The notes beneath the pieces were generated by a model. The model was not told where the DNA came from. It made no database searches and worked only from the letters and a program-made list of their open reading frames with translations. Made by a program: the position numbers and the translations under genes. A DNA stretch of 64,000 nucleotides from Escherichia coli. GTDB taxonomy: Bacteria > Pseudomonadota > Gammaproteobacteria > Enterobacterales > Enterobacteriaceae. The stretch lies in the NCBI RefSeq assembly GCF_003018235.1, contig NZ_CP027437.1; one strand, given 5' to 3'. Every line of letters begins with the position of its first letter. The stretch's first letter is position 1. Of this stretch, positions 16,990 to 21,518 are shown piece after piece.

Positions 16990-17024
16990 TCCCATCTGCA
17001 CAAGCGATAACTCGCTTTGCCCAG

Positions 17025-17049
17025 AGGATGCACTCGCATCCTCTTTCCG
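17025..17049 (+). terminator. Probable terminator after rnk
   Basis: gaggatgcactcgcatcctc hairpin followed by tttcc. Confidence 0.4.
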
Positions 17050-17131
17050 CTCAAATATCAACCAGATTTATCATTTTGCTCTTAAGCGCAGCATTCTAAT
17101 CTGAACTGGTTATTCATCTGCGGAACCTCAT

Positions 17132-17221
17132 ATGAGCGAAGCTCTCGGTATCACTGCATTTTATATATTCATAGCAGCAATTATTGTTGCTGCAGTGCTA
17201 TACCTTGAACAACGCTGGTAG
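17132..17221 (+). CDS. Hypothetical 29-aa single-transmembrane small protein (unverified)
   Basis: ATG..TAG ORF MSEALGITAFYIFIAAIIVAAVLYLEQRW with a 19-residue hydrophobic core flanked by charged residues; weak GGAA Shine-Dalgarno 6 nt upstream. Below the ORF-track size cutoff. Confidence 0.25.
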   Translation: MSEALGITAFYIFIAAIIVAAVLYLEQRW

Positions 17222-17344
17222 CGCCTGGTTTTATTTATTTTCCAGCTCAATAGCAAATTCAGATCAAATCAGCCTCGCAAATCATAGATTCATAACCAAT
17301 AATGTGCTGTTATGTATACATGCAAAAACAAGGAGAGAATGCTT

Positions 17345-17773
17345 ATGTACAAAACAATCATCATGCCAGTGGATGTTTTCGAAATGGAATTGAGCGACAA
17401 AGCGGTTCGCCACGCTGAATTCCTCGCCCAGGATGACGGAGTTATTCATCTACTTCACGTACTACCGGGGTCAGCCAGCCTGAGCCTGCACCGTTTTGCC
17501 GCTGATGTACGTCGTTTTGAAGAGCATCTGCAACATGAAGCAGAAGAACGTTTGCAAACGATGGTCAGCCACTTCACCATCGATCCTTCCCGCATTAAAC
17601 AACATGTCCGTTTTGGTAGCGTGCGGGATGAAGTCAATGAGTTGGCAGAAGAACTGGGGGCTGATGTTGTCGTTATCGGTTCGCGCAACCCATCGATTTC
17701 GACCCATCTGTTAGGTTCTAACGCCTCAAGCGTTATCCGCCACGCCAATCTGCCGGTGCTGGTTGTGCGTTAA
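17345..17773 (+). CDS. uspG: Universal stress protein G
   Basis: Trimmed to [21 protein letters not shown]... (142 aa); strong AAGGAG Shine-Dalgarno upstream. Confidence 0.92.
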
Positions 17774-17788
17774 TTGCCAGAATAAATA

Positions 17789-17866
17789 TCCCGCCCTGCC
17801 CGGAGCCATCCCGGCGGGGCTTTTTATTGCCATAAAAAAGCCGCCAGGTTTGACCCCGGCGGCTAA
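17789..17866. terminator. Two back-to-back terminator hairpins between convergent uspG and ahpF
   Basis: cccgcc...ggcggggcttttt (plus-strand sense) and aaaaaagccgcc...ggcggct (minus-strand sense). Confidence 0.55.
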
Positions 17867-17893
17867 GCAATTGCAGGTGAATCTTACTTCTTC

Positions 17894-19459
17894 TTATGCA
17901 GTTTTGGTGCGAATCAGGTAGTCAAAAGCACTCAGAGAGGCTTTGGCACCTTCGCCAGTGGCGATGATGATCTGCTTGTACGGAACCGTCGTACAGTCAC
18001 CCGCTGCGAACACGCCTTTCACGTTGGTTTCGCATTTCGCATCAATGATAATCTCGCCCATGCGGTTACGTTCGACTGCGCCTTCGAGCCAGTTGGTGTT
18101 CGGCAGCAGACCAATCTGCACGAAAATACCGGCCAGTTCGATGTTGTGAATATCGCCGCTGACACGATCTCGATATTCCAGACCTACGACTTTGCTACCG
18201 TCGCCTTTCACTTCCGTGGTTTGCGCATTCAGAATAATGTCGACGTTTTTCAGGCTGCGCAGTTTGTCCTGCAGAACCTGGTCGGCTTTCATTTCTGGCG
18301 CAAATTCCAGCAGCGTTACGTGCTCAACGATACCCGCCAGGTCAATTGCCGCTTCCACGCCGGAGTTACCGCCGCCGATAACCGCTACGCGTTTACCTTT
18401 AAACAGCGGGCCGTCGCAGTGCGGGCAGTAGGTCACGCCTTTGGTGCGATACTGATCTTCGCCCGGAACGTTCATGTTGCGCCATTTTGCACCGGTCGCC
18501 ACGATAATGCTGCGTGCTTTCAGTACCGCGCCAGAAGCTGTTTCAATCTGATGCAGGCCACCTTCAACCGCTGCCGGGATCAGTTTGCTGGCGCTCTGGC
18601 TGTCGATCACATCAACGTCGTATTCATCAACGTGAACTTTCAGCGCACCTGCCAGTTTCTGGCCTTCGGTCTTCGGTACAGAAATGTAGTTTTCGATATC
18701 AACGGTATCGAGGATCTGACCACCAAAACGTTCGCCCATCAAACCAGTACGGATACCTTTACGTGCGGAGTAAATTGCTGCCGCTGCACCCGCCGGGCCG
18801 GAACCGACGATTAATACGTCATAAGCATCACGCTTGTTCAGCTCTTCTGCCGCACGTTTTTCCGCGCCAGTATCAATTTTGGCGACGATTTCAGTCAACG
18901 TCATGCGACCCTGACCAAACTCTTTCCCGTTTACGAACACTGCCGGAACGCCCATCACGTTGCGATCGGTGATTTCGTTCTGGAAGGTGCCGCCGTCAAT
19001 TGCAGTGTGCTTGATGCGCGGGTTCAGTACGCTCATCAGATTCAGCGCCTGCACCACATCCGGGCAGTTGTGGCAAGAGAGCGAGTAATAGGTTTCGAAT
19101 TCAAAATCACCGTCAATATGGCGAATCTGCTCCAGCAGAGACTGCGCTTCTTTCGACGGATGACCACCGGTCCACAACAACGCCAGTACCAGCGAGGTAA
19201 ACTCGTGGCCCAGCGGGGAACCTGCAAAACGTGGCCCCTGGTTGGAACCTGGGTTAGTGATCAGGAAAGACGGCTTACGCACCGGCAAGCTGTTATCTTC
19301 TTTAAAGGTGACTTTGTCTGACAGTTCTGCGATTTCAGCCAACAGTTCCTTGATTTCTGCCGATTTAGCGCTGTCATCCAGCGTGGCAATTAACTCAACA
19401 GGCTTGGTCAATTTCTCAAGGTAAGCCTTGAGTTGAGTTTTCATATTTGTGTCGAGCAT
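17894..19459 (-). CDS. ahpF: Alkyl hydroperoxide reductase subunit F (flavoprotein)
   Basis: Trimmed to [16 protein letters not shown]... (521 aa); CxxC redox centres and FAD/NAD motifs; AGGAG Shine-Dalgarno. Confidence 0.96.
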
Positions 19460-19483
19460 GTTTATCTCCTGGGCTTTAAACAT

Positions 19484-19615
19484 CATCATGCAAGCGGCCT
19501 CTGCGGCTACCTGGATGCAGCTTGCATCATGGTGCGGGGAAGAAAATCGGGTGCCGCAGCACCCGAAGAATTAGGTGAATTTCCGAAGTATTTCGCGCCG
19601 GAGTTGGTAGCGCGA
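19484..19615 (-). promoter_or_regulatory. Structured ahpC-ahpF intergenic region (partial terminator/attenuator)
   Basis: Long imperfect inverted repeat catcatgcaagc...gcttgcatcatg plus a second hairpin cgcgccggagttggtagcgcg between the ahpC stop and ahpF start. Confidence 0.4.
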
Positions 19616-19629
19616 AAGACGAAGGAAAT

Positions 19630-20193
19630 TTAGATTTTACCAACCAGGTCCAGAGACGGAGCCAGAGTTGCTTCACCTTCTTTCCATTTAGCCGGGCAAA
19701 CTTCACCTGGGTGAGAAGCTACGTACTGTGCTGCTTTGATTTTACGCAGCAGGTCAGACGCGTCACGGCCAATGCCTTCAGCGGTAACTTCGATTGCCTG
19801 GATGATACCCTGCGGGTCAACAACGAAGGTCGCACGGTCAGCCAGACCTTCATCTTCACGCATGTTGTCGAAGTTACGGGTCAGGGCGCCAGTCGGGTCG
19901 CCGATCATCGCATATTTGATTTTAGCGATGGTTTCAGAGCTGCTGTGCCATGCTTTGTGGGTGAAGTGAGTATCGGTAGATACTGCGTATACGTCTACGC
20001 CCAGTTTCTGCAGTTCTTCGTAGTGGTCAGCAACGTCACCCAGTTCGGTCGGGCATACGAAAGTAAAGTCAGCCGGGTAGAAGAAGAAGACGCTCCAGCG
20101 GCCTTCGGTATCTTTTTCGGTGATTTCGATGAATTCGCCGTTTTTGAATGCCTGGTTTTTAAAAGGTTTAATTTTGGTGTTAATCAAGGACAT
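19630..20193 (-). CDS. ahpC: Alkyl hydroperoxide reductase subunit C (peroxiredoxin)
   Basis: 187-aa ORF with peroxidatic FTFVCPTE and resolving Cys motifs. Confidence 0.97.
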
Positions 20194-20564
20194 CTATACT
20201 TCCTCCGTGTTTTCGATGAGATGTAAGGTAACCAATTTTTGCCGATTCGGCTAATGCGTTTCCATTATCAAATCGATAAGTTTTACCTTACAACCTTCGT
20301 AAGACAACTTTGTGAACTTTGCACCGCCAGCGGCGATAAAAAGTAAAATGGCCCCCTTTCCAGGTGACCGTGTAATCTGAACTACCCTTTGGTATCTTCA
20401 GCGCCTGCCTGCAGGCTGAGGTGTTGCCCTTACAAATGCAACAACGACATGGATTACAACACCCTCATAAACAAAGGGCAATCACCTGATCTAAGCTCTT
20501 ACCTATGACAGTGATAGGTTATGCCTTTTACCCGACTTTTGCACTGACTGAAAAGGACAAATTA
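20194..20564. promoter_or_regulatory. Divergent ahpC/dsbG promoter region (OxyR-regulated by established knowledge)
   Basis: 371-bp intergenic region between divergent ahpC and dsbG; no OxyR site could be pinpointed by eye. Confidence 0.35.
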
Positions 20565-21311
20565 ATGTTAAAAAAGATACTTTTACTGGCTCTGCTTCCT
20601 GCAATCGCCTTCGCAGAGGAACTTCCTGATCCAGTAAAAGCGATTGAAAAACAGGGCATTACAATCATCAAAACGTTCGATGCTCCCGGAGGAATGAAAG
20701 GTTATCTCGGCAAGTATCAGGATATGGGCGTCACCATCTACCTGACTCCAGATGGTAAGCACGCTATCTCCGGTTACATGTACAACGAGAAAGGTGAAAA
20801 CCTGAGTAACACACTTATCGAAAAAGAAATTTACGCACCAGCCGGGCGCGAAATGTGGCAACGGATGGAACAATCCCACTGGCTCCTCGACGGTAAAAAA
20901 GACGCGCCGGTCATTGTCTACGTCTTCGCCGATCCGTTCTGCCCATATTGTAAACAGTTCTGGCAGCAGGCTCGCCCGTGGGTTGATTCTGGCAAAGTGC
21001 AATTAAGAACATTGTTGGTTGGCGTTATCAAGCCAGAAAGCCCGGCGACAGCAGCGGCAATTCTTGCCTCCAAAGATCCCGCAAAAACCTGGCAAGAATA
21101 TGAAGCCTCTGGTGGCAAGCTTAAGCTAAACGTGCCTGCAAACGTAAGTACAGAGCAAATGAAAGTGTTAAGCGACAACGAGAAACTGATGGACGATCTG
21201 GGGGCAAATGTCACACCAGCTATCTACTACATGAGTAAGGAAAATACGCTGCAACAGGCCGTGGGGTTGCCCGATCAGAAAACGCTTAATATCATTATGG
21301 GGAATAAATAA
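20565..21311 (+). CDS. dsbG: Periplasmic disulfide isomerase/chaperone DsbG
   Basis: Trimmed to [17 protein letters not shown]... (248 aa); thioredoxin-fold CPYC active site. Confidence 0.93.
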
Positions 21312-21518
21312 AAGATAATTCATGGATGGTTGAAATATATCCCTGTTTTTCAACCATCCTAAAAAAGCATGAATTGCTCGCTCTGCCCTAAGTGGCTGTG
21401 CTATTTTAGAAAAACTTAATTCTGAGTTAAGCAAAAAAATATAATACAAATAAATACAACAGCAACATTATTGAACAAATGAATGATTTATAGAAGAGAT
21501 AATATAACGGAGTATGTT

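Follow-up and report, generated by a model that had tools for sequence, protein, structure and literature searches.

Three hairpins in the ahpC-ahpF spacer of Escherichia coli: a probable composite intercistronic control region

The spacer between ahpC and ahpF of Escherichia coli is, with high probability, a composite intercistronic control region of the ahpCF operon. It combines a hairpin at the ahpC stop codon (H1), a terminator-type hairpin (H2), a hairpin that is an RNase III site (H3) and the ribosome-binding site of ahpF. E. coli relies mainly on AhpCF to remove hydrogen peroxide at low levels, and the enzyme needs its two subunits in unequal amounts. The spacer would be a compact case of three uncoupling layers in one operon, namely a repeat remnant, a partial terminator and an RNase III site. 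For strain K-12 the ERIC family of the repeat, the Term-seq 3' end and the RNase III site are known already, and no new principle is involved. The layering across genera (an old terminator, a younger H3 and a variable ERIC) and the unusually conserved 3' arm of H3 may be undescribed. The comparative layering and a three-allele polymorphism of the ERIC are small additions to what is known.

Locus and structure of the spacer

The stretch of DNA that we analysed (64,000 nt, hereafter the window) is part of an E. coli chromosome. A 301-nt stretch around the spacer was matched in 5422 of 5426 complete E. coli genomes, many of them at 100% identity, and the annotation there is ahpC/ahpF. The features of the locus in window coordinates are as follows.

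19630..20193, minus strand: ahpC coding sequence (peroxiredoxin subunit C), from the ORF list and the RefSeq annotation of 100% identical E. coli records
19632-19630, minus strand: ahpC stop codon TAA
19460-19629, minus strand: ahpC-ahpF spacer, 170 nt
19578..19630, minus strand: H1, a 53-nt hairpin beginning at the last base of the ahpC stop codon, from the fold and alignment
19547..19566, minus strand: H2, stem-loop UCGGGUGC-UGCG-GCACCCGA, from the terminator scan and the fold
19539..19546, minus strand: U-rich tract UUUUCUUC after H2, from the sequence and the scan
19481..19534, minus strand: H3, a long imperfect hairpin, from the inverted repeat, the fold and the published RNase III site
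19466..19470, minus strand: ahpF Shine-Dalgarno sequence AGGAG, 6 nt ahead of the AUG, read from the sequence
19459-19457, minus strand: ahpF start codon AUG (MLDTNMK...)
17894..19459, minus strand: ahpF coding sequence (flavoprotein subunit F), from the ORF list, RefSeq and cross-species tblastn of the N-terminus

The whole spacer, folded as mRNA, gave -59.2 kcal/mol as compared to -44.0 +/- 4.0 kcal/mol for dinucleotide shuffles (z -3.8), and none of 200 shuffles was as good. A preliminary description of this DNA had called the spacer highly structured, and the folding bears this out. On the mRNA strand there are three separate hairpins, H1, H2 and H3 in that order from the ahpC stop codon. 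The preliminary description had quoted the non-transcribed orientation, because the genes lie on the minus strand, and had put the length at 140 bp, 30 nt short of the actual spacer. Both hairpins that it named are real. Its long imperfect palindrome is H3, whose arms (19481-19501 and 19514-19534) have 21 nt each, are 81% complementary and are separated by 12 nt; the pattern is CCATGAYGCAAG ... GCTTRCATGATGA. Its second GC hairpin is most likely H2, in which 19547-19554 pairs with 19559-19566 to form eight perfect pairs, six of them G-C, around a loop of 4 nt (-16.6 kcal/mol, z -5.6). That picture of two hairpins was incomplete, since H1 went unmentioned and the limits drawn for the spacer cut through it. 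From 19597 to the ahpF start, which takes in the 3' arm of H1 and all of H2 and H3, the window is exactly the K-12 sequence in the alignment. An Rfam scan of 17000-21500 at E <= 10 returned nothing in 19460-19629.

Several other elements were noticed near the spacer. A perfect A/U stem of 7 bp (AUGUUUA / UAAACAU; 19458-19464 and 19477-19483, minus strand) encloses a 12-nt loop that contains the ahpF Shine-Dalgarno sequence, and the A and U of the start codon are themselves paired in this stem. E. coli and E. albertii have the stem; the other aligned genera lack it. About 30 nt past the ahpF stop codon, a strong terminator-like hairpin (17839-17864, minus strand) with 10 pairs, 8 of them G-C, is followed by UUUUUAU. 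It lies between ahpF and a convergent ORF resembling universal stress proteins (17312-17773, plus strand), and the ahpCF operon presumably ends here. Between dsbG and ahpC, upstream of the latter, Rfam matched the enterobacterial sRNA STnc70 (RF02069) at 20338-20431 on the minus strand with 44.1 bits against a gathering score of 40. An 'orphan' Term-seq 3' end of Adams et al. (MG1655 638796, 149 nt before the ahpC ORF) maps to about window position 20342, which is the 3' end of this match. One record, that of E. coli DH5alpha (NZ_CP045741.1), is without H3 and a normal ahpF start at about 760-835 of the retrieved locus. Its H2 has altered bases, and the annotated N-terminus of its ahpF differs. 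An error of assembly or sequencing is the probable cause, a laboratory deletion a possible one.

The terminator-type hairpin and the RNase III hairpin

On the mRNA strand H2 is followed by UUUUCUU, and the terminator scan calls a terminator-like site at 19566-19547. The C that interrupts the U tract suggests moderate strength, as far as can be read from sequence. Adams et al. (2021; eLife, PMC7815308, Supplementary file 1) reported dominant plus-strand 3' ends at MG1655 639668 (LB OD 0.4 and M63) and 639670 (LB OD 2.0), with flanking sequence that closes in ...GGGTGCTGCGGCACCCGATTT. Through the MG1655 locus, which is identical in sequence here, these ends map to window positions 19544 and 19542, 3-5 nt past the H2 stem and in the U tract; in Term-seq data of this kind, ends made by termination and ends made by exonuclease trimming look alike. 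Neither ahpC nor ahpF is entered among the Rho termination regions in Supplementary file 2 of the same study.

The hairpin with its U-rich tail was found in all 21 Enterobacterales ahpC-ahpF spacers that we compared. These spacers came from an AhpC search of the genome collection, which returned no Salmonella locus. The H2 core is of the CGGGUGC type in 19 of the 21, and 17 have CGGGUGC itself as the 5' arm. Compensatory double changes were seen three times independently: a U-A pair at position 1 in E. asburiae, a C-G pair at position 4 in Enterobacter sp. Ag1 and an A-U pair at position 4 in Erwinia endophytica. Several G-U wobbles also occur, and many species have a run of A upstream of the hairpin. 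With a GC stem-loop, a U tract, 3' ends in vivo and compensatory changes, H2 has several of the properties expected of an intrinsic terminator. Pantoea, Providencia, Brenneria, Erwinia and Mangrovibacter have a short spacer without H3, in which the U tract of H2 ends about 20 nt ahead of the ahpF AUG. Because H2 is kept with its U tract where H3 is absent, it is not merely a by-product of RNase III processing. From this comparison H2 appears to be the old core of the spacer, found across the Enterobacterales, and its 3' end probably arises in part by true termination.

By folding statistics alone, H3 is only moderately unusual: folded by itself it gave -23.0 kcal/mol (z -2.24), and 4 of 200 shuffles were as good. 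The fold has 20 pairs, broken by single-base bulges and small loops, and so reaches the duplex of about 20 bp or more looked for in an RNase III substrate. RNase III has little sequence specificity. Gordon, Cameron and Pfleger (2017; mBio, PMC5371410) list a new RNase III site at NC_000913.3 639695, 'Intergenic (ahpC-ahpF)', which they confirmed by 5' RACE and by cutting the RNA in vitro with the purified enzyme. They give the half-life of ahpC mRNA as about 14 min in the wild type and about 6 min in an rnc mutant, with the stability of ahpF unchanged. Position 639695 corresponds to window position 19517 in the 5' arm of H3, 58 nt ahead of the ahpF AUG and 60 nt downstream of the K-12 ERIC. 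Cleavage was thus published on a K-12 sequence identical to that of the window, and on this basis H3 is an RNase III processing site.

These results bear on the functional claim of the preliminary description, that partial termination at the structured spacer sets the AhpC:AhpF ratio. Partial termination fits H2, with its U tract and 3' ends. The palindrome works through RNA processing: the RNase III site maps inside H3, and the palindrome is not a terminator because no U tract follows it. The preliminary description had named a spacer free of 3' ends as the outcome that would speak against it. This is not what is seen: published Term-seq places a dominant 3' end after H2 under three growth conditions.

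H3 was found in spacers of the Escherichia, Citrobacter, Enterobacter, Leclercia and Superficieibacter type, where it adds about 65 nt between the terminator and the ribosome-binding site. It is missing from the spacers of more distant genera. Judged by this distribution, H3 appears to be a later addition than the terminator. H2 and H3 together occur in a single copy per genome, with at least 99% identity in 4296 of 5422 E. coli records; having one place per genome, they were discarded as a candidate dispersed repeat. Among 12 species the mean pairwise identity was 0.83 for the 5' arm of H3 and 0.94 for its 3' arm, as compared to 0.67-0.73 at third codon positions of the flanking genes and 0.57 in the linker and Shine-Dalgarno region. 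In the same 12 species, 17 of the 21 positions of the 3' arm (GCUUGCAUGAUGAUGUUU, 19481-19501) are invariant, against 10 of 20 in the 5' arm and 3 of 19 in the ahpF Shine-Dalgarno region. Over 16 predicted pairs of H3 these species showed no compensatory double change and a few broken pairs. The arms are nearly invariant, and covariation is absent because they hardly vary; evidence for the helix therefore comes from the published cleavage assays and from the conservation of the sequence.

Other readings of the conserved H3 sequence were considered and set aside. The conserved AUGAUGAUG in the arm could have opened a small upstream ORF or an N-terminal extension of AhpF. Its frame relative to ahpF is 0, 1 or 2 across the 12 species, and the peptide would have 4, 8, 15 or 24 amino acids or be fused to AhpF, so this idea was rejected. 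A 7-codon ORF in the 5' arm was dropped as well, having no Shine-Dalgarno sequence and, as read from the alignment, no conserved length. A complementarity of 7 nt between the loop region of H2 and the apex of H3 was dismissed as an antiterminator, because H3 is transcribed after H2 and is unable to stop H2 from forming.

The ERIC remnant

H1 folds with -19.1 kcal/mol (z -5.2). In the alignment of K-12 with the window, K-12 has 74 additional nt within the H1 loop, which makes a palindrome of 127 nt; strains of the O157:H7 type lack almost all of H1. A report on such repeats (PMC3184786, citing Sharples and Lloyd 1990, Hulton et al. 1991, and Wilson and Sharp 2006) describes ERIC or IRU elements as imperfect palindromes of 127 bp in the Enterobacteriaceae. 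The K-12 insert matches the standard ERIC-PCR primers at 20 of 22 (ERIC1R) and 21 of 22 (ERIC2) positions. The best matches of the window spacer to ERIC1R and ERIC2 are 13 and 11 of 22, respectively, which is chance level, and no ERIC core was found anywhere in the window. The arms of H1 are nonetheless those of the K-12 element: 19 of the 5' 20 nt are alike and the 3' 18 nt are identical. The window allele keeps about 20 nt of each ERIC end around a loop of 13 nt, and the core is gone.

The K-12 element of 127 nt is dispersed, with a median of 8 places and up to 15 per E. coli genome. The 53-nt form of the window has a median of one place per genome and was found in 2545 of 5426 genomes. With one place per genome, H1 was discarded as a dispersed repeat in its own right. 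At 53 nt it falls short of the 127-bp length of an ERIC, and the central core and the multiple copies are wanting; the homology of its arms to a full ERIC at the orthologous site is present. Since its arms are those of an ERIC while its length, core and copy number are not, we class H1 as an ERIC (IRU) remnant by descent, as its sequence indicates, and not as an ERIC itself. At the orthologous position, Citrobacter werkmanii, Enterobacter sp. Bisph1 and Superficieibacter carry full ERICs, as does one metagenome-assembled genome.

Three alleles of H1 occur in E. coli. The full ERIC of 127 nt is found in about 1764 records, or about 32% of complete genomes (K-12, B, W3110). The remnant of 53 nt makes up 47% (the window, Nissle 1917). 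A near-empty form of about 10 nt makes up about 20% as estimated from 12 of 60 evenly spaced records (O157:H7, O104:H21). E. albertii has the same short form as the window, and the long allele of K-12 is closely like the Superficieibacter copy at this site. The short form does not appear to be a recent deletion of the K-12 copy, since its loop differs and E. albertii shares it. The sequences suggest that the length alleles reflect an old polymorphism or recombination. They provide natural alleles for asking whether such repeats affect mRNA stability.

In other genera the position of H1 is taken by a full ERIC, a REP-like palindrome or another hairpin. We surveyed the first 20-100 nt after ahpC in four further loci and saw differing palindromes. 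In Citrobacter sp. FP75 only the outermost ERIC ends (AATTCGC..GCGAATT) are present, REP-like units occur in Enterobacteriaceae bacterium RIT691 and Leclercia, and E. asburiae has an unrelated GC hairpin. The outer ERIC stem shows compensatory differences among genera, with UUUCC/GGAAA in place of UUCGC/GCGAA. Such varied palindromes suggest that insertions of palindromic repeats are tolerated just past the ahpC stop codon. A search of the open literature found no paper linking ERIC and ahpC. An ERIC between ahpC and ahpF of Salmonella was reportedly listed by Hulton et al. in 1991.

Expression from the ahpCF operon and known parallels

Conway et al. (2014) described ahpCF as one operon with three promoters upstream of ahpC, and the enzyme has the stoichiometry [AhpC]10[AhpF]2. 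On the reading that we favor, transcription would begin at these promoters and part of the RNA polymerases would stop at H2, leaving a short, stable ahpC-only mRNA that ends in H1 and H2. The remaining polymerases would read through into ahpF. RNase III would cut H3 in the read-through RNAs and part ahpC from ahpF. The upstream piece would then be trimmed of a short single-stranded tail back to H2, which would make it as stable as the terminated form and long-lived; the ahpF piece would decay at its own rate and be shorter-lived. H1, left behind by a mobile palindromic element, would at most add 3' structure to the ahpC mRNA. Termination and processing together would yield more AhpC than AhpF from one promoter region, which matches the ratio of ten to two.

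Term-seq shows a single dominant peak in the spacer, as would be expected if the terminated and the trimmed routes converge on one 3' end. Because RNase III cuts in vivo at a site beyond H2, some transcripts must read through H2. Since cleavage lengthens the half-life of ahpC, the ratio would depend at least in part on RNA processing and on the differing stability of the mRNAs, and not on termination alone. The 3' end at H2, the RNase III cut in H3 and the effect on ahpC half-life were published on identical sequence, all of them in K-12, where a full ERIC precedes H2. What we infer is how much true termination occurs at H2, that trimming halts there and what follows for the protein ratio.

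The same observations could be read without any termination at H2. All transcripts would then reach ahpF, RNase III would cut H3, and 3' exonucleases would chew back to H2, which would act only as a protective 3' hairpin. Gordon et al. (PMC5371410) propose that, once RNase III has cut, exonucleases are blocked by hairpins located 3' of ahpC. Without RNase III the ahpC half-life falls to less than half, so many ahpC mRNAs come from read-through transcripts, and 3' ends 3-5 nt past a stem are also typical of trimming. We nevertheless regard this account as unlikely. H2 has the full anatomy of a terminator, with a GC stem, a U tract and, in many species, an upstream A run, and it is kept with its U tract in genera that lack H3 and thus have no downstream RNase III hairpin to start the trimming. 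At the other extreme, H2 might end essentially all ahpC transcripts and ahpF might be expressed from its own promoter in or near the spacer. Such separate transcription of ahpC and ahpF occurs in some other bacteria, and a weak promoter-like match (9 of 12 positions; 19766-19739, minus strand) falls within the 3' end of the ahpC gene. This arrangement seems to us highly improbable. The promoter scan, a crude consensus search, found no promoter-like site on the minus strand within the spacer, and an ahpF promoter inside the spacer was discarded as a candidate for want of a consensus-like site. Moreover, the operon of Conway et al. is a single one with three upstream promoters, and in Supplementary file 3 of Adams et al. 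(PMC7815308) the H2 3' end is not classed among the 5'-UTR events of ahpF. Cleavage of H3 changes the stability of ahpC mRNA, which places ahpC and H3 on the same RNA.

Beside termination at H2 and processing at H3, which we prefer, H3 might have a second job, for example in controlling ahpF translation or in the binding of a small RNA or protein by the 3' arm, the part that ends up as 5' leader of the processed ahpF mRNA. The asymmetry between the arms, described above, goes beyond what pairing or RNase III recognition needs and speaks for such a role. No partner is known, Rfam gave no match, and AUGAUGAUG heads no conserved reading frame. A search for the RIL-seq label 'ahpC.ahpF' gave nothing, and Gordon et al. 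(PMC5371410) report ahpF mRNA stability as unchanged in the rnc mutant. We therefore hold a second job of H3 to be doubtful. Similarly speculative is the broader thought, drawn from the comparison of sequences, that the 3' arm of H3 has an undescribed function, that the ERIC-length alleles (127, 53 and about 10 nt) alter the stability of ahpC mRNA, or both. If the alleles did so, lineages would differ in their AhpC:AhpF ratio.

Comparisons with known systems place the composite region among other intercistronic elements. The K-12 allele of H1 is like other ERIC/IRU elements in being a 127-nt palindrome with the ERIC core that is transcribed, intergenic, directly past a stop codon and multi-copy; the H1 of the window is unlike them in that the core is absent and there is a single copy. 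In Yersinia, according to PMC3184786, co-transcribed ERICs alter the stability of the upstream mRNA. REP/BIME elements (Higgins et al.) offer a further likeness, as intercistronic palindromic repeats that shield the upstream mRNA and allow unequal expression within an operon. They belong to another repeat family, however, and the E. coli site holds an ERIC and not a REP.

The pflB-pflA spacer of E. coli, as described by Gordon et al. 2017 (PMC5371410), also has an RNase III site after a gene with a rho-independent terminator, and cleavage there stabilizes the upstream mRNA. The hairpin of that spacer overlaps the pflA promoter, whereas H3 overlaps none. In the rplL-rpoB spacer of the E. coli rplJL-rpoBC operon, a partial terminator stands between an abundant upstream and a scarcer downstream product, and RNase III cleavage of the read-through transcript parts the two mRNAs (Barry, Squires and Squires 1980, as cited in later papers). 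The genes are others, the sequence is unrelated, and termination efficiency was measured there. By analogy of layout, rplL-rpoB appears to be the closest known arrangement to the ahpC-ahpF spacer.
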